Shown: positions 9,425-31,947, numbered from the stretch's first letter. The stretch: DNA of 64,000 nt from an uncultured Candidatus Saccharibacteria bacterium (GCA_964567825.1 CAZMNX010000001.1:34775-98774); one strand, 5' to 3'. Notes: generated by a model from the letters alone, not told the origin. Made by a program: numbers and translations.

Positions 9425-10333
9425 TCAACCCTGCCGGTCGAGGATCTGCCGGAGCCGCTCGAGCATCTGCTTGGCTGCTTCCTCCATGGCAATCTCGGAG
9501 TCCTCGGCCGGAATGTGAACAACCTTCCACCCCTTGCGCAGCCCGAGGTTGTTGTGCCCATCAGCCTTCGGAACCGTGTCCCGCACGCCACGCCAGAAGA
9601 TCTGACGTGCCATCGAAACTTGTTCCGTGACGTAACGGTTGCGCGTAACAGCCGCCTCAATCAGACACCTCGCTTCGGCTTCAGATGAAGCCCTGACCTG
9701 ATGGACCGGCTTGAGCTCCGGCACCCGACTGAGGCGCTCGAGGACCACGCCGACACCCAACACGACCGGAGAAACGATTTCCCCGATGATGGTCTCCTCA
9801 CGTTCAAGGCTAACCAGAGGAAACCTTTCCCCCTCGACCTGCGCCGCACTCACCTCCGGCCCGGACATCGCTCGGCGCAAATCGCCGAAGAAGGTCAGCG
9901 CCAAGTGATCAGGCGTCTCAAACAAAGGTGTCGACGAAGCTCGACCACTCGGAGAAACCACCAACCAGCCGTCGCGCAGGGCGATGTCGTTCCAATTCCC
10001 GGGGAAGGTATGCAATACCCCCTGCCAGAAAAGATCGTTCATCATCACGCGAATAGCGTCGATTTCTGTCTGCCGCTCCTGGTGGCTGACCAAGGCCTCA
10101 AAACACGGGCGTTCCCGCCGATAGGTCTGCGTGAAGCTTTCCTCCTCGTCGAGCATGAGCAAGCGAAGCCGCTCGCCTTCACAGTAGAAGTTGCGGATCA
10201 TGGGATCCATCATCGTCCCCACCGAAAGCTCGCCGGGCTGATACTCCCGGTCTGAACCGCCGGTATCGACCACAACCGCAGTGTTGTTAAAGATCCGACG
10301 CGCAGACTCGAACACAGACAACTTGGTAGTCAT
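9425..10333 (-). CDS. GC-rich cassette gene A: unknown 302-aa protein with internal repeat, paralog of the 31093..31947 product
   Basis: About 60% GC ORF in a <40% GC background, with an SD (GAGGGAAA) and a low-GC TTGACA-containing upstream region. Its N-terminus aligns with the 31.9-kb gene (TMMDPMIRNFYCEG vs VLTDPMGRAFYHYG), and the motif LFW.GV..(n)LGLR.GW occurs twice. Confidence 0.5.
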   Translation of the reverse strand: MTTKLSVFESARRIFNNTAVVVDTGGSDREYQPGELSVGTMMDPMIRNFYCEGERLRLLMLDEEESFTQTYRRERPCFEALVSHQERQTEIDAIRVMMNDLFWQGVLHTFPGNWNDIALRDGWLVVSPSGRASSTPLFETPDHLALTFFGDLRRAMSGPEVSAAQVEGERFPLVSLEREETIIGEIVSPVVLGVGVVLERLSRVPELKPVHQVRASSEAEARCLIEAAVTRNRYVTEQVSMARQIFWRGVRDTVPKADGHNNLGLRKGWKVVHIPAEDSEIAMEEAAKQMLERLRQILDRQG

Positions 10334-10431
10334 CGTATTTCCCTCGTTAGACGTTACAGTTCGGTCACACTTCTAATTAATAGACTAATATACAACTAAA
10401 ACTATGTCAACATATCTAAAATAAAGAAATG

Positions 10432-11202
10432 CTAGCCAAAAATCTCCTTAAAATGCTCTGTCAAAATCTCGCTTTTTTCCTCTTTATCTGCCTCACTTAT
10501 TAAATCCTGCCACTCCTTGGCGGTAGAATATCTTTCTTTAACGTGAACCTCAGCCTTGTCTTTCAGATTATTTATATTTAAAGCTGGATGACCAGCTATG
10601 GCCGATACCACTCCAGCTGTTCGGGAAATTTTTTCATCGGCTACCGGGCGGAGGTCTTCTGGTTCAATATAAAATGTATAAACCATACTTGTTGGAGCTA
10701 AACATTTTCGTAAAATTACCGATATACCATCTTTAAATTTAAATCTGGGATTTTTTTTACCAATTCTATCAGTACCGCCAGTTGGATACAGTAAAACAAT
10801 TCCCCCGCTTTCAATGTGCTCCTTTATTGTTCTGATAAAAGATAGGGCCTCGGTCGGATCATCAGTCGCTTTAATTAAGAGCTCTTCACCCACAATTGGT
10901 GCAAAAAAATTATAGTTCGATTCATTGATAACAATTTTTAAATCTTTTCTTTTTAAGGCATTTAGAATGGTAAAAGTATCATAATAACCAGGATGATTAG
11001 CAATAATAATTCCAGCTTCAGTATTCAATTTTTCTCTAGCCTCAGTAAAAGCCGCTTCATCAGACTGCTCGAGAGCGTAAACCGGTTTCAGTTTTGCCTC
11101 TTCTAAAACTTTAGCGCCTGTCGCTTGAAAACCACCCTCAGCCAAATTGAGCTGCAAATTATCCGCCGCTATCTTATACAAATCACCTTTTAATCCCTCC
11201 AT
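10432..11202 (-). CDS. lysophospholipid acyltransferase (PlsC-like)
   Basis: ANHPGYYD matches the H(X)4D acyltransferase motif; 256 aa. Confidence 0.55.
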   Translation of the reverse strand: MEGLKGDLYKIAADNLQLNLAEGGFQATGAKVLEEAKLKPVYALEQSDEAAFTEAREKLNTEAGIIIANHPGYYDTFTILNALKRKDLKIVINESNYNFFAPIVGEELLIKATDDPTEALSFIRTIKEHIESGGIVLLYPTGGTDRIGKKNPRFKFKDGISVILRKCLAPTSMVYTFYIEPEDLRPVADEKISRTAGVVSAIAGHPALNINNLKDKAEVHVKERYSTAKEWQDLISEADKEEKSEILTEHFKEIFG

Positions 11203-11323
11203 GTGTTTTTATTTTTCGCTTAAACATAAAAATATCATACCATTCTATCAAGTTAAAAGTCATCAACGAAAAATACTTACCCGCAGGTCTTTGGATAGAA
11301 TGGAGATTTTAGACAAATGAAAA

Positions 11324-11359
11324 GGCCTCGCACACAAGTGGCGTGAAGTGTGCGAGGCA
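11324..11359 (-). terminator. rho-independent terminator of GC-rich cassette B
   Basis: GGCCTCGCACAC-(12-nt loop)-GTGTGCGAGGC perfect inverted repeat, followed on the minus strand by CTTTTCATTT. Confidence 0.5.
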
Positions 11360-11415
11360 CCCTTCATCCCCCGTACGAGGCCGTAGCGAGAAGATTCTTG
11401 GTTCTCTCAGACCAT

Positions 11416-11892
11416 TTACCAGCCACCGCCCTGCAACCGCCTGGCCACAGTTCTCGGCTTTTCGATGAAGTCGCTCATATCGCTGCCCTGGTAAAAGGGG
11501 CGATACTGATGTTCCTTCATCCAGTCAGCCAAGGCAACGCACCGATTCGCCATACCCATGACGATGGCGTGCGAAGACGGAACGGCTGGTGCGCTCCATC
11601 CTCGACGCTCTTGCCACCACCGCACAATGCGTGAGCGAGCCTCGTGCGTCCAAACCGCGACGTTGCGTTCCCACTGGAGGCGATCGTGAATCTGATCGGC
11701 CGCTTGCCGAAAAAGATTCACAAGCTCTTCTGAGCTGAGTGTCTTCCACTCTTGTCCGCCGTGTATGGGTACCCCCTGAAAGAGGGCCTCGTAACGCCTG
11801 ACGATGGGGCCGGCAAACGAAATGTTATTCGTGTCCGCGCTGCTCACCAACTCAATCCCCCCACCCGTCTTCTTGTAACGAATTATCTTCAC
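11416..11892 (-). CDS. GC-rich cassette gene B: unknown 158-aa protein (GTG start, SD AGGAGA)
   Basis: GC-rich ORF; the GTG start is preceded by ACAGGAGATTCACC; no recognizable motif. Confidence 0.4.
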   Translation of the reverse strand: MKIIRYKKTGGGIELVSSADTNNISFAGPIVRRYEALFQGVPIHGGQEWKTLSSEELVNLFRQAADQIHDRLQWERNVAVWTHEARSRIVRWWQERRGWSAPAVPSSHAIVMGMANRCVALADWMKEHQYRPFYQGSDMSDFIEKPRTVARRLQGGGW

Positions 11893-11977
11893 GGTGAATC
11901 TCCTGTTCTATCCGTTATTTCAACACCTGACTAGAACCCTATATATAACTCTAGCATATTTATTATAAAAAGTCAAA

Positions 11978-12007
11978 TGCGGAGGATATGGGACGACGTT
12001 GGAGCAG
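11978..12007. repeat. 30-bp direct repeat copy 1 (TGCGGAGGATATGGGACGACGTTGGAGCAG)
   Basis: 29/30 identical to the copy at 12730..12759; lies about 85 nt upstream of the cassette-B gene start, in that gene's orientation. Confidence 0.8.
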
Positions 12008-12035
12008 TATTGATAGAAAGTGAAGACGAACCGTG

Positions 12036-12692
12036 TTATTTCTGATATACAATCTTTAGACTTTTAATAGTCACTCCTGAATGCGGAGATGAAAAAGAAA
12101 TTTTTGATAAATAGATTTTTGATAAGCCAGCAAATAGCGCATTAAAATCATCCTGTTCGTAGTGTCGAATAACCCTTTCAATTTTGTTATTCTTGTCGTA
12201 AGAAAAACCGACACTATCTTCCCCTAGGATTTTTTTAGCAATTTGATATCTACTTTTATAGTCGGGTGAATAGGTCGCATCACAAAGCCACAGATATCCT
12301 CCACTTTTTAGAACGCGTATTATTTCTTTAGCGGCAGCTATTTGCTTTTTCTTAGAAATAATACTAGCAAAGACATACGGAACAACGACCGCATCGAATG
12401 TCTCATTGGCAAAAGGGAGTTCGTTAGTTATGTCTGCTCTCTTATAACTAATATTGCCATTTATCTTTTTACCCTCTTTTAAGGCTTTCACATTTAGGTC
12501 AACCCCAGTAACCGTATATCCTTTTCTAAATAAAAAATCAGAGACTTTCCCTATTCCACAACCGACATCGAGAATATTACTTCTCACCTTCAGGTGGTTG
12601 GTCAATTCTGGGCCGGGAAATACTGTCCCTGATAGAATTTTTTCGGGTTGAATATTTTTCCAATATTCTTTATTAAATTTATCACTATCCAT
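12036..12692 (-). CDS. class I SAM-dependent methyltransferase
   Basis: VLDVGCGIGKVSDFL glycine-rich SAM motif I; 218 aa. Confidence 0.75.
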   Translation of the reverse strand: MDSDKFNKEYWKNIQPEKILSGTVFPGPELTNHLKVRSNILDVGCGIGKVSDFLFRKGYTVTGVDLNVKALKEGKKINGNISYKRADITNELPFANETFDAVVVPYVFASIISKKKQIAAAKEIIRVLKSGGYLWLCDATYSPDYKSRYQIAKKILGEDSVGFSYDKNNKIERVIRHYEQDDFNALFAGLSKIYLSKISFSSPHSGVTIKSLKIVYQK

Positions 12693-12729
12693 CGAACGGC
12701 TATTGTAGCAAAATTTATTTGCGGAGGAT

Positions 12730-12759
12730 ATGGGACGACGTTGGAACAGCTTTAAACAA
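12730..12759. repeat. 30-bp direct repeat copy 2 (TGCGGAGGATATGGGACGACGTTGGAACAG)
   Basis: Overlaps the last codons of the ABC-F gene and lies about 38 nt upstream of the methyltransferase start. Confidence 0.8.
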
Positions 12760-14203
12760 TCGTTCCCCCACGGATAGTCAGGGTACGAGTAATTGATATC
12801 TTTTCGATAAAATAGCGATCGTGAGAAACTACAATGATAGAGCCCTTATAATCGACCAACGCGCTTTCAATTATTTCTCGAGAAATAATGTCGAGATGAT
12901 TTGTCGGCTCGTCCAAAACGAGTAGCTCGTTTTCTTGATTTGTTAATTTAGCGAAAATAAGCCTCACCCTTTCACCCAGACTTAAATCGGAAACTTTTTT
13001 AAAAATATCCTGTCCACGAAAAATAAAGGCGCCCAAGATGGCCCTAGGATCCCTTGTCGTGCCAATTAATCTATCAGTGTTTAAGAATTCTTCAATTACA
13101 GTCTTATTCGGGTCTAAGTTTTCATGCTCTTGGGCAAAGTAACCGATATGAACTTTTTCACCAATTCTTACGTTTCCCTCATCTAGCGCGAGGTCGCCGG
13201 CTATTATTTTAAGTAAAGTTGTTTTTCCCGAACCATTATCCCCGGAAAGTAAAATCCTTTCTCCTCCTCTTACCTCAAGATTGATTCTCCAAAGAATATT
13301 TTTTTCGGCAAATCTTTTGGTCACCTCTTTAACTCTAATTATAAGTTTGGAGGCAGCTGTTTCTCCTTTTAGGTCGAGCCCCCGAATCTTATTGTATTCT
13401 CTTGGCTTGATGATTTCTTGACTGTAAATTTCTCTTTCTAATCTTTTTTCCATCGCCCTGATCTGCTTGCCCTTGGCAGGATCTGGATGCACATGTGCCT
13501 CTTGTTTTTTTAGAGCTAACCAAAGTTCCATCCGCTTCTTTTCTTTTTGCTGTCGCCAATAATTATCCTCCTGCCTCAAAAGCTGATTGTTCCTCTCCGT
13601 CACGTAGTCACTATAACCTCCAACGTATTGAGTAAATTTATGATTTACAGGATTAATTTCTAATATCTTACTTACACAGTTATCAAGTAATTTTCTATCG
13701 TGAGAGATTAGTAAGATTGCCCCCTTAAAATCCTTAATGAGGCTTTCGAGCCACTCTACACCCTTCTTATCCAAATGGTTTGTCGGTTCATCAAGTAGTA
13801 AAATGCCGGCCCCTTCAAGTAATATTTTTGCTAGGGCTAGTCTGGTTTTTTGCCCTCCGCTTAATTTATTTACTAATGTGTCAGTTGCTACCTTGCTAAG
13901 CCCAACTTTTTCAAGAATTGATTTCGCCCTACCGACGCTTTCGTCGATTGATAGGAAACTCTTTATTGTGTCAGTACCCTGATGGGACGGTTGTTGTGGC
14001 AAATAGCCAACTCTTTCGTGATCTATCTGAACATTACCCCCATCTGCTTCTATTTCACCAACGATTATCTTCATAAGGGTTGATTTACCAGAACCATTTG
14101 GTCCAACTAAGCCGATTTTATCTTTTTTGTCCAAGGTAAAAGACACCTTTTCAAAGAGGGGCTCACCTAGTATCGATTTTGTTATATTTTTTACGGTAAT
14201 CAT
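12752..14203 (-). CDS. ABC-F family ATPase (EttA-like translation factor), two ABC domains, no TM
   Basis: Two Walker A motifs (GPNGSGKST, GDNGSGKTT), two LSGG signatures and a charged linker; 483 aa. Confidence 0.85.
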   Translation of the reverse strand: MITVKNITKSILGEPLFEKVSFTLDKKDKIGLVGPNGSGKSTLMKIIVGEIEADGGNVQIDHERVGYLPQQPSHQGTDTIKSFLSIDESVGRAKSILEKVGLSKVATDTLVNKLSGGQKTRLALAKILLEGAGILLLDEPTNHLDKKGVEWLESLIKDFKGAILLISHDRKLLDNCVSKILEINPVNHKFTQYVGGYSDYVTERNNQLLRQEDNYWRQQKEKKRMELWLALKKQEAHVHPDPAKGKQIRAMEKRLEREIYSQEIIKPREYNKIRGLDLKGETAASKLIIRVKEVTKRFAEKNILWRINLEVRGGERILLSGDNGSGKTTLLKIIAGDLALDEGNVRIGEKVHIGYFAQEHENLDPNKTVIEEFLNTDRLIGTTRDPRAILGAFIFRGQDIFKKVSDLSLGERVRLIFAKLTNQENELLVLDEPTNHLDIISREIIESALVDYKGSIIVVSHDRYFIEKISITRTLTIRGGTIV

Positions 14204-14424
14204 TTTTTTGTTAAGAATTAAAAAAAACCAGCTAGTGCCGGTTTTTCAAAAAAGATGGTTAAACGCTAGAATTAAGTTAGTTTTTTTGAAATTTTACCCA
14301 GCACAAAACAGCCTGAGTAGTTGCTCCCTTAAAGTTCTTGAACAGAATGTAAAATTTGTCTTTCATGACGTTTATTATAGTACTACAAAAACGCACTAAT
14401 TGCAATATGACACCTAAATATTAT

Positions 14425-14514
14425 TGGCGGAGGAGGTGAGATTCGAACTCACGGCACCCTTGCGAGCGCGACAGTTTTCAAGACTGTTCCTTTAAACCAC
14501 TCAGGCACTCCTCC
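14425..14514 (-). tRNA. tRNA-Ser (TGA), type II, encoded CCA
   Basis: Acceptor GGAGGAG/CTCCTCC, anticodon stem ACAGT/ACTGT with loop CTTGAAA, long variable arm, T-loop TTCGAAT, 3' GCCA. Confidence 0.8.
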
Positions 14515-14561
14515 GTGCTTGAAATATTGCCATATTTTAAGAGTATTTTCAAGCTTAAATC

Positions 14562-15470
14562 TTATTCCGCCTTATTCACTTTATGCCCACCGAATTTATT
14601 ACGCATAGCGGAAATTAATTTACCAGCGTAAGTTGGTGTAGTGCGTGACTGCTCACGGACCTCAAGCGCATTCTCCAAGCTAGGCATCTTACCATCAGCC
14701 TCAGCTAAAAGTTTTTTCATCTCCTCTTCCGTCTCCCCTTTTGGCACATTACCAGAAATAGCATCCAGGTAACCGGTCTCATTAAAAGATTCAGCCAGCC
14801 AGGTCATTAATTTACTGTCCACAATACTACCGTGAGAATAAACTTTAGCAACTTCTTTTAAATCCACATTCAGGCTGGAATTCTTTATTACTTCAAAACC
14901 TTCGCCAAGGGCCGACATCATGCCATATTCGATCCCGTTGTGCACCATCTTTACAAAGTGGCCGGCACCGGAATTTCCCAAATAAGCAAAACCTTCTGGC
15001 CCAGCTAAATCTTTAAAAACATTTTTAGTGTATTCAAAACTTTCTTTATCACCACCAATCATGAGGCACGCTCCATTTCGGGCCCCGCCCATTCCACCAG
15101 AAGTACCACAATCCATAAAACTCACGCCCACCTTCTTTAATTTGGCGTAACGAGCTTGGGAATCTTTATAATAAGAATTACCGCCGTCGATCACGATATC
15201 GCCCTCATTTAAAAGTGGGGTGAGCTCGCCAAGCACTTGATCCAAGGCTTCACCAGCGTTCACCATGAGCCAGATTACTTTCTTTTCTGGCAATAATTTT
15301 ACCAACTCAGAAACTGAAGACGATGGCGCCGCTCCAACCTTAACCACTTCTTGCATTTTTTCCTGAGTACGATTAAAAACTACCACTTCATATTTATGAT
15401 CAAGTAAATTCAAAACCATATTTGAGCCCATGCGGCCGAGACCGATAAAACCAATTTTTAACTTTTCCAT
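14562..15470 (-). CDS. gnd: 6-phosphogluconate dehydrogenase (decarboxylating), short form
   Basis: N-terminal Rossmann motif GFIGLGRMGSNMVLNL; about 300 aa; adjacent to zwf. Confidence 0.8.
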   Translation of the reverse strand: MEKLKIGFIGLGRMGSNMVLNLLDHKYEVVVFNRTQEKMQEVVKVGAAPSSSVSELVKLLPEKKVIWLMVNAGEALDQVLGELTPLLNEGDIVIDGGNSYYKDSQARYAKLKKVGVSFMDCGTSGGMGGARNGACLMIGGDKESFEYTKNVFKDLAGPEGFAYLGNSGAGHFVKMVHNGIEYGMMSALGEGFEVIKNSSLNVDLKEVAKVYSHGSIVDSKLMTWLAESFNETGYLDAISGNVPKGETEEEMKKLLAEADGKMPSLENALEVREQSRTTPTYAGKLISAMRNKFGGHKVNKAE

Positions 15471-16846
15471 ATAATATTATTTTTCTTATTCCAATCGGCT
15501 AGTTCTTTTGGTCCAGAACTACCAATTGGATATTTATAAACTTCCAAATTTCGACGGTCAATTTTGTCTACCACCTTCCAGGCTAATTCGACTTCATCAT
15601 TTCGCACAAAAACCGACTGTTCGCCAGACAAGGCCTGCTCTAATAAAACTTCATAAGCCTCCGGGGTATTCTCGCCATGTGTGCAATGATGGCAATATTC
15701 CATATCAACAGTTTCAACCTCAAAACCTCTTCGTAAGGATTTGGAATTAAGTTCAAAAGAAAAACCCTCTTCTGGTTCAATTCTGATAGTTAGATAGTTA
15801 CTGTCGGAAGGGCAGGTTTTTGAAAGCAAGCAGTCTACTGGTTTAAATCGAATATGAATTACTGCTTCTTTCTTGTTCATATTTTTACCAGAACGAACAA
15901 AGAACGGCACTCCCCGCCATCTCTTATTATTTATTTCCAGTTTGGCTGCAAAAAAAGTTTCTGTTCTAGAATCGGTGCTGACTCCTTTTTCTTGAGCATA
16001 ACCCTCGTACTGCCCCAAAATTAGATCTTTAATTTTTGTCTTCTTTAAAACTTTTACTTTCTGATCACGCAAATATTCGCCGGAAAGAAACTTTGGTGAC
16101 TCCATGGCCACAAGTGAAACCATTTGCAAAATATGATTTTGTAACATGTCTTTTACGGCACCGTATTTATCAAAATAATTACCACGATTTTTGATGCCGA
16201 AATCCTCATCACGAATAATTTGTACGGAGTCAATGTGCTTATTATTCCATAAAGGCTCAAGAATCCGATTGGTAAAACGCAGCAAAGCAATATTCCCCAC
16301 TAATTCCTTACCGAGATAATGGTCCACACGAAAAACATTTTTTTCAGCAAAAACTTTATCAATGCTTTTATTAATTTTTTGAGCCGAAGACAAACCATCG
16401 CCAAACGGCTTTTCGTAAAGTACTCTCTCCCATTTATTATCTTTACTATTTACTAAGCCAACCTTCGCTAAATTCTCACTGGCAACCGTAAAATGTTCAG
16501 GTAGGGTGGCGAGATAAAATAAACGATTTCCAGACAAGCCCTCTCTTTGTTCAATTTCTAAAATTTTATTTTTTAAACTTTCGAAATCAGCCGTCTGATC
16601 AAAATCTAGTCTCTGATAATAGGCCGAGTTACAGAGTTTGGTCCAAACCGCCTCGTCAATATTTTTAATATTTTGTTTGGCCTCAGCTAGAATCGATTGA
16701 ATCGAAACGTCTGAACGGGCCACGCCAATCAGAGCCACTTTAGAAATCGTATTGAGCTTAAGAAGAGTATATAGAGCCGGAATGAGTTTTAACTTAGCCA
16801 GATCCCCTGTCGCTCCCATGATTATAAAAGTAAAATTCCTGTCCAT
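15458..16846 (-). CDS. zwf: glucose-6-phosphate 1-dehydrogenase
   Basis: RVDHYLGKE active-site motif and the N-terminal NADP-binding GATGDLA. Confidence 0.85.
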   Translation of the reverse strand: MDRNFTFIIMGATGDLAKLKLIPALYTLLKLNTISKVALIGVARSDVSIQSILAEAKQNIKNIDEAVWTKLCNSAYYQRLDFDQTADFESLKNKILEIEQREGLSGNRLFYLATLPEHFTVASENLAKVGLVNSKDNKWERVLYEKPFGDGLSSAQKINKSIDKVFAEKNVFRVDHYLGKELVGNIALLRFTNRILEPLWNNKHIDSVQIIRDEDFGIKNRGNYFDKYGAVKDMLQNHILQMVSLVAMESPKFLSGEYLRDQKVKVLKKTKIKDLILGQYEGYAQEKGVSTDSRTETFFAAKLEINNKRWRGVPFFVRSGKNMNKKEAVIHIRFKPVDCLLSKTCPSDSNYLTIRIEPEEGFSFELNSKSLRRGFEVETVDMEYCHHCTHGENTPEAYEVLLEQALSGEQSVFVRNDEVELAWKVVDKIDRRNLEVYKYPIGSSGPKELADWNKKNNIIWKS

Positions 16847-16851
16847 ATTAT

Positions 16852-22254: not shown

Positions 22255-22287
22255 TAATAAAAAACCACCCATTCATTGGGTGATTTT

Positions 22288-23338: not shown

Positions 23339-23346
23339 ATAACAGT

Positions 23347-23940
23347 TTAGTTATTTTCTAATTTCTTGCCTAAATATTTAATATATCTAAAAATTAAGAC
23401 AATAATTACTAGGCCGGCGGCCACTAAAAATATCTTACCGGCCACACTTGTAATCTGCACATAAAGATTTCCGAAATAAAAGCCGATAGCGAGAAGCACG
23501 CCGGACCAAATCAATTGACCGAGGACATTAATAAACACATAGCGCCAAAAAGGAATTTTTGACAGGCCGGCCGTAAATAAAACAACGATGGCAAAGCCTA
23601 GGCCGTTACTAATCTTAGACAAAAATAAAACCGGATTTTTGTACTGGTGAAATAAATCCGAAGCCTTGGTAATGTGATCCTCAGTAATGTTAAAACGTTT
23701 ACCAAAACGGGTGGCGAAGCCGTGGCCATAACGAAATCCCAAATAATACCAGACCACATCTCCGATCAAATCTCCCAACATTAATGAAACATAGAGTGGA
23801 ATTAGGCTAAAATAGCCAGCAAACAATAGACCGCCTAAAAATAGAGACAAAAATGGCCCCTCCAACATGGCAATAATTACTACAACAGCGTAAATCAAGA
23901 TCGAGTGACTTAGACTAAACGCCAGGAGGTATTCGTGCAT
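23347..23940 (-). CDS. DedA/VTT-domain membrane protein
   Basis: Multi-TM protein with a VTT/DedA-like core (GYFSLIPLYVSLMLGDLIGDVVWYYLG). Confidence 0.6.
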   Translation of the reverse strand: MHEYLLAFSLSHSILIYAVVVIIAMLEGPFLSLFLGGLLFAGYFSLIPLYVSLMLGDLIGDVVWYYLGFRYGHGFATRFGKRFNITEDHITKASDLFHQYKNPVLFLSKISNGLGFAIVVLFTAGLSKIPFWRYVFINVLGQLIWSGVLLAIGFYFGNLYVQITSVAGKIFLVAAGLVIIVLIFRYIKYLGKKLENN

Positions 23941-23943
23941 AGA

Positions 23944-24969: not shown

Positions 24970-25039
24970 TAAAAATGGTTTTTTTCAATTGTCTAGACCA
25001 GAAGCTTTTACCATAAAAATATGTATAATTAGGCTTATG

Positions 25040-25606
25040 ATCTCGCAGATTACTGGCAAAATAATCCTAAAAACCGAAAAATATCTCGTTATTGATACCA
25101 ATAATATCGGTTATAAAGTTTTTAGTACCAGCACCCTTCTAAATCAAAGCAAGTTGGAAGCTGAAGTAAGGGTTTGGACCTATCTTGCTGTCCGGGAAAA
25201 TGCCCTAGATTTATACGGTTTCGCTGGTAAAGATGAATTAGATTTTTTTGAATTACTCATCACCATTTCGGGCGTCGGGCCCAAAACAGCTTTGGGAATA
25301 TTGAACGTAGCAACCGTTAATTCTCTACGTAAAGCGATTTCCAGCGGCGAAACAGCCCATCTCACTAAAGTTTCGGGCCTAGGTAAAAAAATGGCTGATA
25401 AAATTGTTTTAGAACTAAAAGGAAAATTGGGAAGCTACGAAGAAGTGAGTATGGGACTTAAAGAAGAAATCGATGCCCTCGAAGCTCTAAAATCTTTGGG
25501 TTACTCCCACAAGGAAGGTCGCGAAGCGCTTCAAGAGATTGATAAAAGCATTACCACCACCAGCGGACGGGTCAAAGCCGCCCTAAAACATTTGGGTAAA
25601 AATTAG
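25040..25606 (+). CDS. ruvA: Holliday junction branch migration protein RuvA
   Basis: MISQITGKII..EKYLVIDTNNIGYKV and the helix-hairpin-helix motif ISGVGPKTALGIL; the start was moved to the ATG at 25040. Confidence 0.85.
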   Translation: MSQITGKIILKTEKYLVIDTNNIGYKVFSTSTLLNQSKLEAEVRVWTYLAVRENALDLYGFAGKDELDFFELLITISGVGPKTALGILNVATVNSLRKAISSGETAHLTKVSGLGKKMADKIVLELKGKLGSYEEVSMGLKEEIDALEALKSLGYSHKEGREALQEIDKSITTTSGRVKAALKHLGKN

Positions 25607-25618
25607 TAAAATAAAACT

Positions 25619-26878
25619 ATGATAGAAAAAGTTTTGCGTCGTATCAAAAAAATAATTCCGAAAAAAGTCTTTACCTTTTTTCAGCCAGCTTACCACTATA
25701 GTCTAGCGCTGGCTGGAGCTTTAATTTATCGCCTTCCCTCTCGAAAAATTAAAGTGGTAGCGGTGACCGGTACCAAAGGAAAAACTTCAACCGTCGAACT
25801 CATTAATGCCATTTTGGAAGAAGCAGGTTTTGTTACAGCTCTAGCTAGTACTTTGCGCTTTAAAATCCGAGATGATTCAAAACCAAATATGCTTAAAATG
25901 ACCATGCCTGGTCGGTTTTTCATTCAAAGATTCTTGCGCCAAGCAGTCGACAAACATTGTGACTACATTGTACTTGAGATTTCTTCCGGTGCGGTTTTAC
26001 AGTATCGTCATCTGTTCATAGATTTAGATGCTTTAATTTTTACCAACATTGCACCGGAACATATCGAACAGCATGGTTCATTTGAAAAATATTTGGAAGC
26101 AAAATTAAAAATTGCTAAAGCACTAGAAAAATCACCCAAGAAAAATAAAATCATTGTCGCAAATATTGATGATAAAGAAGGACACAAATTTTTGGCCATT
26201 AATGTTGAAAAAAAGGCCCCCTACTCTCTTAAAGATGGTGAGCCAATAGTGTGCCACGAAAATGGTAGCAAATTTGTCTGCGAAGAAATTGAAATCGAGT
26301 CTAAATTGCCTGGTAAATTTAATGTCTATAATATGTTGGCCGCTATTTCTTATACTCGAGCCCTCGGCATCACCATGGAGACAATCAAAACTGGTCTAGA
26401 AAAAGTAACCGAAATAAAAGGCCGAGCCCAAAAAATCCCAAATAATTTAGGAATAGACGTGGTTGTTGATTATGCCCATACCCCAGACTCACTTAAGGCA
26501 ATTTACGAAGCCTTTCCTCAAAAAAAGATTTGTGTTTTAGGAAACTGTGGCGGTGGTCGTGATAAATGGAAAAGAAAAGAAATGTCGGCAATTGCTGATA
26601 AATATTGTTCAGAAATAATCGTGACCGACGAGGATCCCTATGACGACGATCCGTTGGAAATCGCCCAGCAAATGGCCGCCGAAATTAAAAATAAAAAACC
26701 AAAATTAATTATTGATCGCCGTGAAGCCATCGCTTCGGCCATAAAACTTGCCCAGAAAGGCGATGCTGTATTAATAACTGGCAAAGGTACCGATCCCTAT
26801 ATCATGCGGGCTAACGGTAAAAAAGAGCCCTGGAGCGACGCGAAAGTGGCCGAGGAAGAGATTAAGAAGTTAAGCTAA
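25619..26878 (+). CDS. Mur ligase family protein (MurE-like; lacks a recognizable N-terminal domain)
   Basis: VTGTKGKTST P-loop, EISSGAVLQYRHLF, TNIAPEHIEQHGSFEKY, DYAHTPDSL; 419 aa. Confidence 0.55.
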   Translation: MIEKVLRRIKKIIPKKVFTFFQPAYHYSLALAGALIYRLPSRKIKVVAVTGTKGKTSTVELINAILEEAGFVTALASTLRFKIRDDSKPNMLKMTMPGRFFIQRFLRQAVDKHCDYIVLEISSGAVLQYRHLFIDLDALIFTNIAPEHIEQHGSFEKYLEAKLKIAKALEKSPKKNKIIVANIDDKEGHKFLAINVEKKAPYSLKDGEPIVCHENGSKFVCEEIEIESKLPGKFNVYNMLAAISYTRALGITMETIKTGLEKVTEIKGRAQKIPNNLGIDVVVDYAHTPDSLKAIYEAFPQKKICVLGNCGGGRDKWKRKEMSAIADKYCSEIIVTDEDPYDDDPLEIAQQMAAEIKNKKPKLIIDRREAIASAIKLAQKGDAVLITGKGTDPYIMRANGKKEPWSDAKVAEEEIKKLS

Positions 26879-27797
26879 AAACGGTCGCCTTCTTTTCAAA
26901 AAAATTAGTCAGGGCCTTAGCTGTCGCCTCGGCCATTTTGTCCATAAATACCCGACGCATTTCTTTAGTTCTTAATTTGCCTTCATAAATGTAGGCGTAT
27001 TCGATCAAAGCACTTAAAGTGTCCGAGGTATTAAATCGCCCAATTGCAATTAAATCCTGATCCTGAACAACGCCCGCTGATTCTTGGGGCATGGTACTTA
27101 CACCACTAACCGTCGATAGACCAGACAGTAAATCATTGGCCAGTTCAATACTAGAAGTGGAATTTGAATATTGTTTTTCTGGTACATAAATAGCGAAGCC
27201 ACTGAAATTTGGTCGACCGTTTATTTTAGGATTATCATTAAAGTGAATGTGCAGGGTAATATCAATTTTATTCTCATTGGCCCACTTATTTATTCCATAA
27301 AGGTGTGTTGCAACCAAAGTCGGCGCGCTATTATGTTGAACGGAGTCAATTAGATTTATTCTCCCCTCGTTCACCAGGGTCGTCATCTCCTTTTTCTGTT
27401 CGTTTCTCCAATCCTGAATGGCCGCTAGATTATTGGTAAAATAATTATCTAAATCAGTGTTCCATTTATTAAAATCACGAGAAACAACGACTTCAAACTT
27501 ATCATTAGTAGACAAATAAGCTTCTAGTCTTTGCGCCAGGGCCACATTCAAATCTCTTTCAATAATCGATCCGTACTCTGCCCCACCATAATCTGGCTCA
27601 TGGCCCGGTACTAATAAGATCTGAATCTTACCTTGGCTCGGCGCATTATCATATTTCAAAACTACCTCTTTCACGGTTTTACCTTGAGAAAAGAAAACAG
27701 CGGCATATTGTGGAAAGGCTGCGGTGAGTAAATTAACGAGAAGAACGATCATCGCCAAAAGACAAAGTAAGCCGGCAATGATCTGTTTTTTGGTCAT
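26862..27797 (-). CDS. N-acetylmuramoyl-L-alanine amidase (Amidase_3-like), N-terminal TM
   Basis: ILLVPGHEPDYGGAEYGSIIERDLNVALAQRLEAYL and HIHFND resemble Amidase_3 metal-binding regions. Confidence 0.5.
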   Translation of the reverse strand: MTKKQIIAGLLCLLAMIVLLVNLLTAAFPQYAAVFFSQGKTVKEVVLKYDNAPSQGKIQILLVPGHEPDYGGAEYGSIIERDLNVALAQRLEAYLSTNDKFEVVVSRDFNKWNTDLDNYFTNNLAAIQDWRNEQKKEMTTLVNEGRINLIDSVQHNSAPTLVATHLYGINKWANENKIDITLHIHFNDNPKINGRPNFSGFAIYVPEKQYSNSTSSIELANDLLSGLSTVSGVSTMPQESAGVVQDQDLIAIGRFNTSDTLSALIEYAYIYEGKLRTKEMRRVFMDKMAEATAKALTNFFEKKATVFSLTS

Positions 27798-27872
27798 TGA
27801 AATATTATAGCAAAATTATATTTACCTGTAACGCTATTTTACTTTTTACAGCATTGGGCTTAAACTAAAAAT

Positions 27873-28733
27873 ATGCCTGAATTACCCGAAGTCGAAACCC
27901 TAAAAAGAGAGCTGGAAAAATCCTTGATTGGAAAGAAAATAAAAAAAGTAGAGATACTCTGGCCCAAGGCGGTCTCTCCTCTTTTACCAGCGACATTTCA
28001 AAAACACTTAGTTGATCAAAAGATAACCGGCCTAAATCGCCGAGCTAAGATGCTGATCCTAAATATCGGCAAAGAAAAACATCTAGCCTTTCATTTAAAA
28101 ATGACCGGCCAACTCATTTTTGTTCCCCAAAATGATGAAATCGTGGGTGGCGGCCATCCAACGAACGATGTTCAAACACCAGGTAAGCACACTCGCCTAA
28201 TCTTTTCGTTCAGTAACGGCGATCATTTGTATTTTAATGATTTACGTAAATTTGGTTGGTCACGACTTTTAAATAGGGAGGAACTAAAAAACTCAACTAA
28301 ACATTACGGCCCAGAACCACTCGGCCCCGATTTTACACTCGAACATTTCGAAAACATTTTTAAAAGATATCCTGGACGCACAGTGAAACAACTACTTCTT
28401 GATCAAACCCTAATCGCCGGTATTGGTAATATTTATGCCGACGAAGCCGCCTTCCTTTCCGGAGTTTTACCGATGCGAAAAGCCGCTAAAGTCAGCCCGA
28501 AAGAACTGAAGGATTTGCATAAAAACATTATTGCCGTCCTGAATTTGTCCATCAAGCACAAAGGAACGTCTTCCAGAAACTACCGTCGCTCCGATGGCAC
28601 TAAAGGTAACTTCGTCAATAAACTTTTTGTCTATGGTCGCAAAGGTTTACCTTGTAAAAAATGTGGTTCTTCTATTCAAAAAATTAAACACGTCGGTAGG
28701 GGTACGCATTATTGTTCGAGGTGTCAGAAGTAG
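27873..28733 (+). CDS. mutM: formamidopyrimidine-DNA glycosylase
   Basis: MPELPEVET N-terminus and a C-terminal CxxC-x-CxxC zinc finger (CKKCGSSIQKIKHVGRGTHYCSRCQK). Confidence 0.9.
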   Translation: MPELPEVETLKRELEKSLIGKKIKKVEILWPKAVSPLLPATFQKHLVDQKITGLNRRAKMLILNIGKEKHLAFHLKMTGQLIFVPQNDEIVGGGHPTNDVQTPGKHTRLIFSFSNGDHLYFNDLRKFGWSRLLNREELKNSTKHYGPEPLGPDFTLEHFENIFKRYPGRTVKQLLLDQTLIAGIGNIYADEAAFLSGVLPMRKAAKVSPKELKDLHKNIIAVLNLSIKHKGTSSRNYRRSDGTKGNFVNKLFVYGRKGLPCKKCGSSIQKIKHVGRGTHYCSRCQK

Positions 28734-28734
28734 T

Positions 28735-29235
28735 TTAGATTTCTAGCATCCGAAACATCGCCACTCCAAAAGCCACCGAGACGTTAAGGGACTCCTTACT
28801 TCCCAGCATGGGAATCTCGGCAACCTTGTCGGCTAGTTTTAGAATTGACCTGGAGACGCCGTCAACTTCATTGCCAATCACAAAGGCCACTTTTGAACCC
28901 TTAGTGAATTTTATTTTCTTATAATCCACTGATTTATCAGACTGTTCAATACAAACAATTTTAAAGCCCTCTTTTTTTAATTGTTTAATCACCCATAAAG
29001 ATTTCGGGAAATATTCCCAATCAACGTTTATTTCAGCACCCAAAGAAACTTTGGAAATGTCTTCTCGTAACCGCCCAAAACGATCCCGTGGAGTGGGAGT
29101 GGTACCGCAAAGTATAAGCTTGCTAATATCCAAGGCATCGGAAGTTCGAAAAATTGAGCCCACATTGAAAGTGCTGCGGATATTATCTAAAACCACGATG
29201 GTCTCAACCTTGTTTTTTGGTGAATACTTCGACAT
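28735..29235 (-). CDS. SpoU/TrmH-family (SPOUT) RNA 2'-O-methyltransferase
   Basis: VAFVIGNEVDGVS and IPMLGSKESLNVSVAFGVAMF motifs. Confidence 0.7.
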   Translation of the reverse strand: MSKYSPKNKVETIVVLDNIRSTFNVGSIFRTSDALDISKLILCGTTPTPRDRFGRLREDISKVSLGAEINVDWEYFPKSLWVIKQLKKEGFKIVCIEQSDKSVDYKKIKFTKGSKVAFVIGNEVDGVSRSILKLADKVAEIPMLGSKESLNVSVAFGVAMFRMLEI

Positions 29236-29305
29236 CTTTTCATTCTAAGCTTTCACTAAATATTCGCAAGTAGTTAAAAGTTGATAACTTTGCTATAATA
29301 TTTTC

Positions 29306-29722
29306 ATGCCTCACACCTTCAATATTTTCCCCGAATTATTTTCTTTTTCTCTAATTGCACCAAGTATTTTAAGGGTTATTTTGGGTTTGCTCTTTCTCAA
29401 CCTAGGCTCACTTAAGCTCGGAAAAGAGCGATCGGGATGGGTATCCTCGTTTAAGCTTTTAAATATTCACCCAGCCGGATTCTTCACTGGTCTACTGGGA
29501 ATTGTTGAAACAGTTGGTGGCTTTTTACTGATAATCGGTGCTTATACCCAGCTTACCGCTTTAATTTTGTTAATCATTTCAATCTGCGAACTAATGATCG
29601 AGTACCGAGAAGAATCAGTTCTCAAAAGAGATTTTGTTTTCTACTTACTACTAGCAACCATTTGTGTCTCACTTCTACTCACCGGTGCCGGTTTGTTTGC
29701 GGTGGATATTCCAATCCTATAA
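29306..29722 (+). CDS. DoxX family membrane protein
   Basis: Four TM; ILGLLFLNLGSLKL and ETVGGFLLIIG DoxX-like motifs. Confidence 0.55.
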   Translation: MPHTFNIFPELFSFSLIAPSILRVILGLLFLNLGSLKLGKERSGWVSSFKLLNIHPAGFFTGLLGIVETVGGFLLIIGAYTQLTALILLIISICELMIEYREESVLKRDFVFYLLLATICVSLLLTGAGLFAVDIPIL

Positions 29723-29761
29723 AAACGTAAAAGGTCCGGCGCGATGTGCTCGCGCCGGACC
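29721..29761 (-). terminator. rho-independent terminator of GC-rich cassette C
   Basis: GGTCCGGCGCG-ATGTGCT-CGCGCCGGACC perfect 11-bp stem, followed on the minus strand by TTTTACGTTTTT. Confidence 0.55.
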
Positions 29762-29785
29762 CCTCCCTAACCTCCACCCAGACTC

Positions 29786-30220
29786 TTACTCTGTCTGGTA
29801 TTCCTCGATGATTGTAATGAACGAATACCGCTTGACCCCATAGGCGTAACCACGCATGATGTCCCTCATCCCCCGATACTCTTCGCGATAGCCGAAGTTG
29901 AACGAGAAACGATTGTACCACCAATAGTAGTACCAGCCTTCAGTCTGCACGAACTCGCGCCAAGCCTGCGGGTTGAACTGGACGAGTTTTGCACTGTAGC
30001 CCCGCCCCGCTGAAGTTATTGCCACTCGCATAGGCCGAGTGTCAATTCGTGTCACCCACACCCAAGGGGCCGACACGTGCCATCCGCCTCGTTCTTGTAA
30101 CCACATCTTGCCATTGAACCAATTCCTGGCAAGGCCAACCTGAGTGAGGTCGGTGTAGTTCAGAAAAGACAGATAGAAAAGCAGGACAAAGGCCAGAACG
30201 GCCACAATCTTCCTTTTCAT
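29786..30220 (-). CDS. GC-rich cassette C gene 2: SPFH/band-7-like small membrane protein
   Basis: Start MKRKIVAVLAF is a TM helix; GWHVSAPWVWVTRIDTRPMRVAI and AKLVQFNPQ resemble the N-terminal half of an SPFH domain; the ATG overlaps the upstream stop (ATGA). Confidence 0.4.
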   Translation of the reverse strand: MKRKIVAVLAFVLLFYLSFLNYTDLTQVGLARNWFNGKMWLQERGGWHVSAPWVWVTRIDTRPMRVAITSAGRGYSAKLVQFNPQAWREFVQTEGWYYYWWYNRFSFNFGYREEYRGMRDIMRGYAYGVKRYSFITIIEEYQTE

Positions 30221-30768
30221 TTTCCACTTCCGACCGAGGCGGTAGGCACACCAGCCTGACTCGGCGCAAGCTCTTTGCCGACGATGAGAAACGGGCAATC
30301 CCGCCCAGCTTCACTGTCAAACGCGTAGCACCGAAGAATTTCCGCCAGGTCGTTACGGCTGTCTCCAGCCTTCCGACCATGCCAGCGCAGAAAAACGTCG
30401 AGGCCCTTCGGATCAAACTGCACAAGCTTGGCATTCAGTACCCGGCTGCTTATGCTGCCGACACCCCCACCACCCGACGACGTTCCGTTGAGCCCGCCAG
30501 TGATCTGCACCTGAATTGGGCGTAGATCGATCGCGTGCACGCTGTAATGGAACGGATTGCGGATGAAGTAGCCGGTGCGATCAAGATGCTCGATCTCTCC
30601 GGTGTACTTGTTGAAGGTGAACGGAAATTCGTAGTTGTCCACGAACGTCACGAACACGACCCGGAAGAACAGCAAAGCGATGAGCGCAACGCCCAACGAA
30701 ATGCCGCCCCAGACCAGGACGCCCGACAGGCTGATGCGAAAACGAAACTTGCTCGATGTATCATTCAT
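30217..30768 (-). CDS. GC-rich cassette C gene 1: SPFH/band-7-like small membrane protein
   Basis: Start MNDTSS preceded by SD AGAGG; TM helix; GYFIRNPFHYSVHAIDLRPIQVQI and NAKLVQFDPKG are stomatin/HflK-like. Confidence 0.4.
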   Translation of the reverse strand: MNDTSSKFRFRISLSGVLVWGGISLGVALIALLFFRVVFVTFVDNYEFPFTFNKYTGEIEHLDRTGYFIRNPFHYSVHAIDLRPIQVQITGGLNGTSSGGGGVGSISSRVLNAKLVQFDPKGLDVFLRWHGRKAGDSRNDLAEILRCYAFDSEAGRDCPFLIVGKELAPSQAGVPTASVGSGK

Positions 30769-30868
30769 CTCGAACCTCTTAGTTTTGACGAACACACAGA
30801 TCTCTTGGCGAAATACCAAGTTTAATCTCCGTCGCAAGGTTATCACACAATAGACTATTTGTCAACTG

Positions 30869-30941
30869 TCCGCCCAGTTGGAATCGAACCAACGACCTTC
30901 TCCTTAAAAGGGAGCTGCTCTACCAGCTGAGCTATGGGCGG
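30869..30941 (-). tRNA. tRNA-Lys (TTT)
   Basis: Acceptor CCGCCCA/TGGGCGG, D-arm GCTC-AGCTGGTA-GAGC, anticodon loop CTTTTAA, T-arm GTTGG-TTCGATT-CCAAC; the 3' end faces cassette C. Confidence 0.75.
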
Positions 30942-31008
30942 ATTGAAAAGAATATAACAAGAAAAAACCCAAATGTCCAATAATATTCCGACTATACAAT
31001 ATCAAAAA

Positions 31009-31052
31009 AGAGGCCGGTGGTGGGAATCGAACCCACACACCGCCTCCCATAT
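31009..31052 (-). terminator. tRNA T-arm-like hairpin plus T6: terminator of cassette D, or a tRNA 3' remnant
   Basis: On the minus strand GGCGGTGTGTGGG-TTCGATT-CCCACCACCGGCC is followed by TCTTTTTTGA. It has a T-loop-like TTCGATTCC, but no complementary 5' acceptor strand could be found. Confidence 0.4.
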
Positions 31053-31092
31053 TTGTTCTCCACCTCCAAACTAGATGTCTGTCGAGCCCCGT

Positions 31093-31947
31093 TCAGCCAA
31101 CGCCGACCATAACCTCCTGTGGCGGGAACGACGTCAGCATCCAACCCGCCCGGAGGCCAAGTGAGGACGTCTGCTCGCCATCGAGCATCTTCTCGACCAC
31201 CCCCGCCCAGAACAGATCGGCGGCCAAGTCACTGCGAGTTCGCGCGCGTTCCATGGCGACCAGAACCTTCCTGACGTAACCGATGGAGTGCGAAGCCACG
31301 AAGGCATTCATACCCGTCTTGTCGTTCATGAAGGGAATCTCGGCTTTGGCATCGTCCCGAATCTGAGACGAAACGTTCCAGAGTGCCCGCAGAGCTGGAT
31401 CATCGATCGTCGCCATTTCGGCTTCGCCCTCTTCGAGTGGCGAATCCACGTCAAACGAAGCTTCGGCCGCCGTTCCGCTGTCGCCCTTCAGAGCTGCAGT
31501 CACCTCATCCAGAAAGTTCGGATGGGGATTCTTCACGTCACCACCGAACTGACCGAATAGCCCGTCCTTCTTGGCGAACACCCGGAACCCAGAGCAGATC
31601 ACTCCCTGGTCGAAGATGCCGCGCATGGCCGGCAACTCGCGCAAAATGCATTCCCAAGCGAAACGCATCAGCAGGTTGCCGTCCTCCCTCGCCCGCTGCG
31701 CGCTCTGAATCCGCCTGCCGAACTCGCCGAGATTGGGCAGACTGATCAGGCCGCCGGACAGCGACTCCATCACTTTCTCGCGACCGTAATGGTAGAACGC
31801 CCGCCCCATGGGATCGGTCAGGACACCGATCTCCTCGTAACCCCCTGGGGCCTCTGTTCTATTGACAGTGCAGATCTCCGACGGGACGTGCCCGTTCAAA
31901 ATCTCACCCACCAAAACGAACGCCGACTTACTCTTGCTTGTGCTCAT
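31093..31947 (-). CDS. GC-rich cassette gene D: unknown protein, paralog of the 9425..10333 product
   Basis: About 60% GC; ATG at 31945-31947 preceded by GAAAGG; shares DPMGRAFYHYG and ADLFWAGVV..(n)..LGLRAGW motifs with cassette A. Confidence 0.5.
   Translation of the reverse strand: MSTSKSKSAFVLVGEILNGHVPSEICTVNRTEAPGGYEEIGVLTDPMGRAFYHYGREKVMESLSGGLISLPNLGEFGRRIQSAQRAREDGNLLMRFAWECILRELPAMRGIFDQGVICSGFRVFAKKDGLFGQFGGDVKNPHPNFLDEVTAALKGDSGTAAEASFDVDSPLEEGEAEMATIDDPALRALWNVSSQIRDDAKAEIPFMNDKTGMNAFVASHSIGYVRKVLVAMERARTRSDLAADLFWAGVVEKMLDGEQTSSLGLRAGWMLTSFPPQEVMVGVG

Follow-up and report, generated by a model that had tools for sequence, protein, structure and literature searches.

The stretch of DNA analyzed here, 64,000 nucleotides from an uncultured Candidatus Saccharibacteria bacterium (GCA_964567825.1 CAZMNX010000001.1:34775-98774; referred to below as the window), carries two GC-rich genes on its minus strand, termed A and B, which code for related two-domain proteins of a new, uncatalogued family. 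The open reading frame (ORF) of A spans positions 9425-10333, from an ATG at 10333-10331 to a TGA stop at 9427-9425, and encodes 302 amino acids. ORF B spans 31093-31947, encodes 284 amino acids counted from its ATG, and falls into another subfamily than A. Alternative starts for B are a TTG at 31968, giving 291 residues, and that of the 273-residue version called by other annotators; the 284-residue form was preferred because its N-terminal helix is conserved. A pair of GC-rich minus-strand ORFs had been proposed from the sequence alone (the original prediction), and both were found, with 302 and 284 codons.

The mean GC content of the window is 40.6%, and the host has a GC content of 0.40 with a GC content at third codon positions (GC3) of ~0.33. 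Maximum-likelihood GC change-points delimit a segment at 9355-10319 for A (59.5%, flanks 35.4%) and at 31060-31894 for B (60.6%, flanks 38.9%), and in both cases the GC-rich segment comprises the ORF and its terminator. The overall GC content of the two genes is 0.59-0.60 and their GC3 0.72-0.74, compared with a GC3 of 0.30-0.38 in the neighboring housekeeping genes; the base composition of A and B is foreign to the host genome. Resolved by codon position, GC1/GC2/GC3 is 0.63/0.43/0.72 in A and 0.61/0.45/0.74 in B. This order, GC3 > GC1 > GC2, is what genuine genes of a genome with ~60% GC show.

Because GC-rich DNA gives rise to long ORFs by chance, and several overlapping long ORFs are present in both GC-rich regions, the coding status of A and B was tested. 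Both were shown to be real protein-coding genes, each transcribed separately. A search of the two cassettes against Rfam gave no match at the gathering threshold, nor at E≤1. The same gene orders at the A and B junctions with the AT-rich flanks were recovered in independent Logan, NCBI, and JGI assemblies, and the junctions are therefore neither chimeras nor assembly artefacts. Antisense or out-of-frame ORFs of 184-260 amino acids overlap the GC-rich genes of the window at 9701-10255, 55650-56432, and 55942-56535 (all plus strand). GC-rich DNA contains few stop codons, which is the simplest explanation for such overlapping long ORFs.

Each gene stands alone between housekeeping genes, in agreement with the stand-alone cassettes proposed earlier. 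A Shine-Dalgarno-like GAGGG (10341-10345, minus) was read directly 7 nt upstream of the ATG of A, and a GAAAGG element precedes the ATG of B. Downstream of A, 40 nt past the stop codon, lies a GC-rich hairpin with an 11-bp stem (GGGGTGGGGCG / CGCCCCACCCC; 9355-9385, minus) followed by TTT. It forms the terminator-like end of the cassette and also the end of the GC-rich segment, with the change-point at 9355. A simple terminator scan missed this hairpin because of its short T run, and the ruvX promoter region follows directly. The stop codon of B is followed by a long, imperfect terminator-like hairpin with a T6 run (31004-31046, minus), then by tRNA-Lys and a further GC-rich unit of two genes (D3-D). 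Upstream of A, TTGACA and TATATT hexamers are spaced by 12 nt and were not called by the promoter scan. A canonical TTGACA-17-TATATT promoter was rejected on this spacing, and the hexamers are at most a candidate promoter of A. Canonical sigma-70-like promoters were seen for the window islands C, F, and G and for the family genes at two loci of other genomes, L008 and L010, and none for A, B, or D3.

Repeats around the cassettes are of marginal significance. A T-arm-like sequence (GGGTTCGATTCCCAC) in the loop and stem of the terminator hairpin of B matches the tRNA-Lys T-arm at 88% over 17 nt, a marginal value, and a statistically marginal 18-nt inverted repeat (89% complementary, 30845-30862 / 32042-32059) brackets B and tRNA-Lys. 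The sequence TAGTCTATT occurs in two exact copies in the window (10379-10387 and 30849-30857, minus), just upstream of A and D3. As a shared operator it was rejected as statistically weak, with just these two copies, at promoter-like regions.

A and B each consist of two tandem copies of a domain of ~115 amino acids with the signature G-x-I-x-D-P-x-x-R ... LFWxGV..P ... LGLRxGWxV. In A, the N-type domain (residues ~25-135; hidden Markov model (HMM) envelope 25-135; 9929-10261, minus) comprises a beta strand, a helical hairpin, and a beta hairpin and has no HxxxH..C motif, and the C-type domain (residues ~170-284; 9482-9826, minus) reads IFWRGVRDTVP...LGLRKGWKVV. The C-type domain of B (residues ~165-284; 31096-31455, minus) reads DLFWAGVVEKM...LGLRAGWMLTSFP. 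Its N-type domain (residues ~27-136; 31540-31869, minus) is degenerate: the stretch G-V-L-T-D-P-M-G-R-A-F-Y is retained, and the LFW/RxGW part has decayed to RFAWECI...SGFRVF. An alignment of the halves places this degenerate motif at the equivalent position (RFAWECILRELP...GVICSGFRVF). The motif had been predicted to occur twice in A and once in B. Two copies are indeed present in A and one clear copy in B, but B is a two-domain protein as well, with the degenerate copy in its N-terminal half.

A direct BLASTP comparison of A and B gave E=8e-6 over the C-terminal LFWxGV...LGLRxGW block (32 bits, 38 amino acids), and the N-terminal half of A aligned to the C-terminal half of B over 110 residues with E=3e-4. 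Smith-Waterman scores between the halves (A1, A2, B1, and B2) were judged against 300 shuffles. A1 versus A2 gave z=10.2 over ~95 aligned residues, which identifies A as an internal tandem duplication. B2 matched both halves of A (z=10.4 with A2 and 7.7 with A1), whereas B1 gave z=3.8 with A1, over the DPMxRxFY segment only, and 2.4 with B2; B1 retains only the G-x-L-T-D-P-M-G-R-A-F-Y segment. The four-way alignment of A1, A2, B1, and B2 is colinear with P, W, and G invariant. Thus, the paralogy suggested for A and B was borne out, with a pairwise E far below 0.01 and shuffled z-scores of up to 10.4.

The halves were then typed with N-type, C-type, and single-domain HMMs that had been built without A and B. 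A1 scored as N-type (56.5 bits versus 44.3), A2 and B2 reached 76.0 and 75.8 bits on the C-type HMM, and B1 was a weak N-type domain (22.5 bits on the N-type versus 16.6 on the C-type HMM). The halves of A and B, B1 weakly, thereby match domain models made from other members, which places both proteins in the family. The duplication is therefore ancient and family-wide and not peculiar to A. Residues W103, P111, W123, W247, R266, and W269 of A sit in columns that are at least 90% conserved. The C-terminal domain of B has the core residues (the W of LFW, the following P, and R-x-G-W), and its N-terminal domain keeps W and P, with F in place of the last W.

An AlphaFold model of A based on a family alignment of 51 sequences reached a predicted local distance difference test score (pLDDT) of 90.9 and a predicted template modeling score of 0.86. 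The prediction is driven by covariation; the single-sequence model of A had a pLDDT of 33. In the model, each half is built from one beta strand (GExxIGxIxDP), two helices of ~30 residues forming a hairpin that ends in LFWxGVxxxP, and a beta hairpin formed by LGLRxGWxVV. An N-terminal helix is also present, and A has in addition a C-terminal amphipathic helix. The two halves are confidently predicted to pack as one pseudo-dimeric fold, and single-domain relatives of ~150 residues presumably form the same unit as homodimers. Foldseek searches with the model gave no match below E=0.23 against the Protein Data Bank (PDB) and none below E=0.26 against a viral structure library, so that no significant structural relative was found in either. 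Searches of A, B, 51 two-domain members, and 45 single-domain members against Pfam-A, NCBIfam, PHROGs, and PADLOC gave isolated chance matches only, with at most one member per family, and the family profiles had no match among PDB sequences. The earlier statement that no known domain is recognizable therefore stands for all of these collections.

In word-indexed homology searches, A and B (against 5.8 billion clusters) and the family profile recovered hardly anything beyond the proteins themselves. The family became visible only through an exhaustive hmmsearch with a repeat-unit profile against 1.84 billion representatives, which gave 149 proteins at E≤1e-3, of which 33 also passed E≤1e-10. 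They form two size classes, one of ~265-360 amino acids with two matched stretches and one of ~135-175 amino acids with a single one. The profiles of the two classes match each other in hhalign with a probability of 99.7% and E=6.5e-27. In tblastn, A aligned over its full length to locus L004 in another genome (283 amino acids, E=7e-22), B also aligned over its full length to homologous loci, and the pairwise matches of A and B to other members reached E-values down to 1e-29 within the family set. Judged by these comparisons, A and B belong to a real but uncatalogued family and are not private orphans.

The family is very sparse: the median best-match identity of its representatives is 34%, clusters at 90% identity hold 1-4 sequences, and the full alignment is too diverse for degenerate-pattern locus searches. 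The consensus of the first domain is GExxxGxIxxPxxRxL...HxxxH...C...LFWxxVxxxFP...RxGWxxV; the second domain is similar and lacks the His/Cys cluster. An H-x(2-4)-H...C motif is widespread among N-domains (40 of 49), whereas C-domains (2 of 49) and single-domain proteins (10 of 66) seldom have it. Typical members carry the H-x3-H...C motif where the helical hairpin of the N-domain has its tip; A and B have lost it and are in this respect atypical. The nearest relatives of A are the proteins P0009, P0005, and P0014 (97-83 bits), and those of B are P0006, P0010, P0011, and P0042 (56-50 bits for P0006, P0010, and P0042). A is not among the top 40 relatives of B, nor is B among those of A. With a median pI of ~5.4 (5.35 for A, 5.02 for B), family proteins are mildly acidic; they are soluble, without signal peptide or transmembrane segments, and have variable C-terminal tails. 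Many members (e.g. P0010, P0015, P0051, P0061, and P0063) carry a short hydrophobic Gly/Pro tail after the last beta hairpin, such as ...VRMVMTPMGPAI... or ...VVGMPLGMMFG...; residues 278-284 of B (...VMVGVG) are a further example, and A has the amphipathic helix instead. The tail could serve as an additional strand or for docking, as a peptide.

Twelve loci of the family were examined, namely A and B and ten loci retrieved from other sequences (L003, L004, L005, L007, L008, L010, L011, L012, L093, and L094). The family gene stands alone at all ten retrieved loci, with no conserved partner, and on contigs long enough to show several neighbors these are mostly housekeeping genes: RF-1 and FtsEX at L005, RNase R and 6PGD at L007, Pif1 helicase and RpoB at L008 and L010, the S19-L22-S3... 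ribosomal operon at L011, seryl-tRNA synthetase and RuvB at L012, and YkuD and a DEAD helicase at L094. The single-domain member at L094 also lies near DpnI, PD-(D/E)XK, and AAA_15/21 genes and an integrase. At L011 (10001-10876 and 7543-8241), the family gene is located directly upstream of S19-L22-S3-L16..., and an IS200-like Y1 transposase gene was noted 2 kb upstream. In this operon L15 follows S5 directly, with no L30 between; the absence of L30 from this position is a hallmark of the candidate phyla radiation (CPR). The window itself contains no ribosomal operon and no rRNA. L005 lies on a 753-kb contig of 38% GC. With regard to the distribution of the family, in Actinobacteria or in CPR, homologs do occur outside this genome, on CPR-like chromosomes rather than on obviously actinobacterial ones.

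Syntenic relatives of the window loci were also sought. Scans of genome representatives gave no relative of A and one non-syntenic, 56% identical relative of the neighboring acyltransferase. A metagenome scan for the same acyltransferase neighbor gave no match, and one with DsbA returned 80 loci, of which none was close enough for synteny and none had a family member.

At 10 of the 12 loci, the family gene is a sharp island of GC and GC3 in an AT-rich genome. Gene and flank GC, followed by gene GC3 and the median GC3 of the neighbors, were 0.56 and 0.38, 0.64 and 0.35 at L005; 0.51 and 0.42, 0.56 and 0.39 at L007; 0.50 and 0.38, 0.52 and 0.35 at L008; 0.58 and 0.38, 0.77 and 0.32 at L010; 0.53 and 0.37, 0.57 and 0.28 at L011; 0.57 and 0.46, 0.68 and 0.48 at L012; 0.70 and 0.47, 0.96 and 0.56 at L093; and 0.53 and 0.35, 0.64 and 0.20-0.28 at L094. 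The exceptions are L003, which shows no GC contrast, and L004, the contig of P0005, a close relative of A, where the flanks have 55-60% GC. The shift extends to codon positions 1 and 2, whose GC content has a median of 0.485 over ~160 family sequences compared with 0.41-0.43 in host proteins. GC-richness characterizes the family, and four unrelated islands in the window as well.

One slot was compared in closely related genomes. Between L008/L009 and L010, amino acid identity and estimated distance are 93% and 0.075 for RpoB, 82% and 0.21 for Pif1, 69% and 0.40 for DUF2914, and 63% and 0.51 for SWIB; CSD is 98% identical. The family gene, located in the same slot directly after Pif1, is 29% identical, at a distance of ~1.7. 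GC3 of the slot alleles is 0.52 in L008 and 0.77 in L010, and the two alleles are not each other's nearest family members. In the nucleotide alignment of L008 and L010, the 3' end of Pif1 and the promoter (TTGACA-17-TATGGT / TATTAT) are kept, the 5' untranslated region and the ORF are unalignable, and homology returns with the terminator's 3' half (CACGCGTTTTTT) and the promoter that follows. Because homology ends after the promoter and resumes in the terminator, the hypervariable GC-rich block is the transcription unit.

The GC-rich cassettes A and B were confirmed, but their number was not: the window carries six GC-rich islands in all. The four further islands have a GC content of about 53-62% and a GC3 of 0.64-0.79, all lie on the minus strand between housekeeping genes, and all have the same codon-position signature, yet their proteins are unrelated to A and B. 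Together the islands make up 10.7% of the window; the corresponding share in 428 kb of loci whose genomes carry a related DsbA is 1.1%. Flanking genes code for RuvX, an acyltransferase, a methyltransferase, DsbA/DsbB, SpoU, DoxX, TsaE, and a Pol III delta-like protein, with PolA, Zwf, MurE, and ABC-F farther off. Island C (11325-11869) contains an ORF at 11416-11892 for 158 amino acids with no known domain. Island D3-D (29735-30739) contains ORFs at 30217-30846 (likely ATG 30768) and 29786-30298 (likely ATG 30220) and a terminator at 29729-29765; D3 and D are tandem paralogs (E=6e-9), membrane-anchored by N-terminal hydrophobic segments. D is weakly similar (E=2e-4) to G3, the lipoprotein-like ORF at 62237-62575 in island G (62185-62554), which has an LAGGC N-terminus and a TTGACA-17-TATAAT upstream. 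D3, D, and G make up another small set of paralogs within the GC-rich islands, and none of them matches Pfam. Other carrier genomes likewise contain unrelated GC-rich ORFans (L005 5789-6379, L008 7639-8028, and L010 541-1146; GC 0.50-0.54, GC3 ~0.6), which are not common to close relatives. It appears that the GC-rich state follows genome-specific accessory genes in general.

Island F-E (55495-57064) contains ORF F (56558-57022) and ORF E (55584-56405/56498). Over residues 163-213 (...VVLTDLHLPM...), ORF E matches a receiver domain (Response_reg) with E=5.6e-4, which is sub-threshold. In its leader, at 56441-56491 (minus), lies a complete hammerhead-ribozyme-like motif of type III topology (...UCCGUA|GUAAAGU-gagu-ACUUUAC-CUGAUGA-GUCC-aaaa-GGAC-GAAA-CGGA). 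It scores 25.5 bits against Rfam Hammerhead_1 (gathering score 34; local E=0.002), and its minimum free energy fold is exactly the three-way junction (z=-2.5). This is the sole hairpin-forming CUGAUGA...CGAAA core in the window, where a loose pattern search gave two matches, the chance level. ORF E probably starts not at 56498 but from the ATG at 56405, downstream of the motif.

The cassettes share features with several known systems. Like genomic islets, or lateral ORFans, they are short segments of foreign GC content and codon usage between core genes, encode domainless proteins, are patchy in relatives, and in one case adjoin a tRNA. Unlike these, A and B have no mobility genes or repeats, each islet is one tidy transcription unit, and members of one and the same family form GC-rich islets in many AT-rich genomes that are unrelated, with no plausible donor among ~15 billion proteins. 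Hypervariable slot loci that exchange immunity, toxin, or surface-antigen genes by homologous recombination resemble the L008/L010 slot in having conserved flanks around a divergent homolog, and their families are likewise sparse and fast. However, the family described here is a single cytoplasmic gene without toxin, secretion, or partner gene, its variable block is bounded by promoter and terminator, and a strong GC shift is not known from such loci. As in LAGLIDADG homing endonucleases, single forms of ~150 and tandem forms of ~300 amino acids occur as free-standing genes between conserved genes. That identity was rejected, since the family has neither the LAGLIDADG motif nor a Pfam match and its fold order is beta-alpha-alpha-beta-beta rather than alpha-beta-beta-alpha-beta-beta-alpha. 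Matches to CsoR/FrmR metal sensors and ZAS (HxxxCxxC) anti-sigma factors span just ~80 residues of generic helices with no sequence similarity; both families lack the beta elements and the LFW / RxGW core, and their motif spacing differs. Membership in either was rejected, A and B having no His/Cys motif. A literature search on GC-rich islands in CPR returned nothing relevant.

With regard to function, the generic fold, the acidity, the lack of catalytic signatures, the rapid divergence, and the lack of a linked partner led us to propose, with low confidence, that the protein is a cytoplasmic binding or adaptor module, possibly metal-binding in typical members, that probably acts in conflict with a phage, a host, or a competitor and not in housekeeping.

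The observations lead to the question of how such genes come to be GC-rich. We give about even odds to A and B being accessory cassettes with a fast turnover. In this model, recombination with DNA of a GC-richer gene pool would insert or exchange genes in conserved intergenic slots, both members of the family and unrelated GC-rich genes of the same genome, and the imported cassettes would then ameliorate to different degrees. Import followed by amelioration would explain the range of GC3 and the shift at all three codon positions. Replacement would explain both the 29%-identical, non-sister alleles in one slot of close genomes and the placement of A and B in different subfamilies. Import would further explain the unrelated GC-rich genes in the same genome and the single GC-rich native context.

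Several observations weigh against an origin by import. No donor was found, the best identity of A and B among ~15 billion proteins being 26-28%, and no family member was present in 2.9 million viral contigs or in phage and plasmid collections. A GC-rich native context was seen at 1 of 12 loci only, where a purely donor-driven model predicts many. No integrase, transposase, or recombinase occurs among the genes flanking any island of the window, and att-type direct repeats and attC-like sites are absent from the island ends. Promoter and terminator tail are kept around a variable, GC-rich segment that matches the transcription unit in extent, which fits hyper-divergence in place equally well. 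As to the carriers, the CPR hallmark was seen in L011 alone; the other genomes look CPR-like.

The strongest alternative, which we regard as possible though less probable, is that the gene is inherited vertically in its slot and diverges there several- to 20-fold faster than its neighbors under a gene-specific GC-biased force. GC would be kept up, for instance, by biased gene conversion, in which heteroduplexes arising from frequent exchange of diverged alleles are repaired with a GC bias, or by selection on mRNA or DNA (stability, or escape from AT-targeting factors), and the GC-richness would be no relic of a GC-rich donor. The presence of the island at 10 of 12 loci, in one- and two-domain forms that are 25-35% identical, is in line with this, as is the persistence of the slot in related genomes with conserved promoter and terminator tail around exactly the transcribed segment that diverges. 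The distance of ~1.7 for the family gene against 0.075 for RpoB is fast yet not impossible, and the extreme sparseness of the family without a visible donor fits as well. RNA fold z-scores are mildly negative (-2.3, -2.0, and -4.7) and suggestive at most, as they derive from 20 shuffles each without covariation support. On the other hand, unrelated genes of the same genome are equally GC-rich, so the force must act on a class of genes; the syntenic alleles are not closest relatives and differ in GC3 (0.52 versus 0.77); L003 has no GC contrast, and L004 lies in a GC-rich contig. Divergence in place also needs a mechanism that is not established: to our knowledge, biased gene conversion this strong has not been established for single bacterial genes.

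That the cassettes are cargo or remnants of a prophage, integrative element, integron, or defence island is improbable. B adjoins tRNA-Lys, with the T-arm-like sequence in its terminator and the 18-nt inverted repeat around B and the tRNA, a hammerhead-like ribozyme lies in the sister island F-E, and the L094 member is found near DpnI, PD-(D/E)XK, AAA_15/21, and an integrase. However, the flanks of the window islands lack the mobility genes and repeats named above, the PHROG and PADLOC profiles were silent for 51 members and the island proteins, the viral, phage, and plasmid collections hold no relatives, and the neighbors at eight other loci are mostly housekeeping genes. The individual candidates were rejected in turn: a prophage, as phage, viral, and plasmid collections contain no family members; an integron cassette, as the island ends share no imperfect inverted repeats, the islands extend over 53 kb, and the flanking genes include no integrase; and a tRNA-linked integrative island, as the sole repeat is a 17-nt, 88% match within the universal T-arm and no integrase is nearby. 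A diversity-generating retroelement was likewise rejected, as blastn at word size 7 detected nothing in the window that repeats a portion of either gene; no convincing reverse transcriptase motif was present among window ORFs of at least 150 amino acids, and no template repeat was found.

A recent duplication inside the genome of the window, which the shared genome, strand, composition, and architecture of A and B might suggest, is very improbable and was rejected. The BLASTP match between the two is only 32 bits over 38 amino acids, and each has more than 10 closer relatives in other genomes. Because A and B are each nearer to proteins of other genomes and fall into different subfamilies, they do not stem from a recent duplication. 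Least credible of all is that the segments are structured non-coding RNAs or compositional artefacts whose ORFs arose by chance in stop-poor DNA, as the long ORFs in several frames (e.g. 9701-10255, plus, 184 amino acids) and the slightly negative RNA fold z-scores might suggest, an explanation contradicted by 149 protein-level relatives that keep the motifs though their DNA is unalignable, by the gene-like codon-position GC, by the AlphaFold pLDDT of 91 with the family alignment versus 33 without it, and by the silence of Rfam even at E≤1.

It is a speculative and, in our estimate, unlikely extension that the family marks an undescribed class of loci in ultra-small genomes of the CPR type, consisting of hypervariable, GC-rich transcription units in conserved slots. 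The islands would then be the signature of a diversification hot-spot on a conflict-related gene set rather than footprints of foreign donors, and a process confined to the transcribed, divergent segment would keep the units GC-rich. Candidates for such an endogenous process would be GC-biased repair in allelic exchange by natural transformation, or a targeted diversification mechanism.

New beyond the original prediction are the extent and architecture of the family, its confidently predicted fold, the non-recent relationship of A and B, and the family-wide occurrence as a GC island in a hypervariable slot. The domain family, with ~150 clusters at 50% identity, single and tandem forms, and a predicted fold unmatched in the PDB and the viral library, sits on small, AT-rich, CPR-like genomes, where most such genes stay unannotated. 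It falls into the known category of compositionally atypical accessory genes; the persistent GC-richness combined with a hypervariable transcription unit could be more novel. If simple lateral transfer is true, the result is a modest one: a new family of the DUF type, plus a genome in which foreign islets are unusually numerous. As a natural experiment on how base composition evolves, the family is unusually clean: a sharp island of up to 0.96 GC3 recurs in many unrelated AT-rich genomes, and between near-identical genomes it is a hyper-divergent block that promoter and terminator delimit. Whether the GC-rich state is imported or maintained by an endogenous GC-biased process bears on accessory-gene turnover in episymbionts with reduced genomes, and also on biased gene conversion in bacterial genes.

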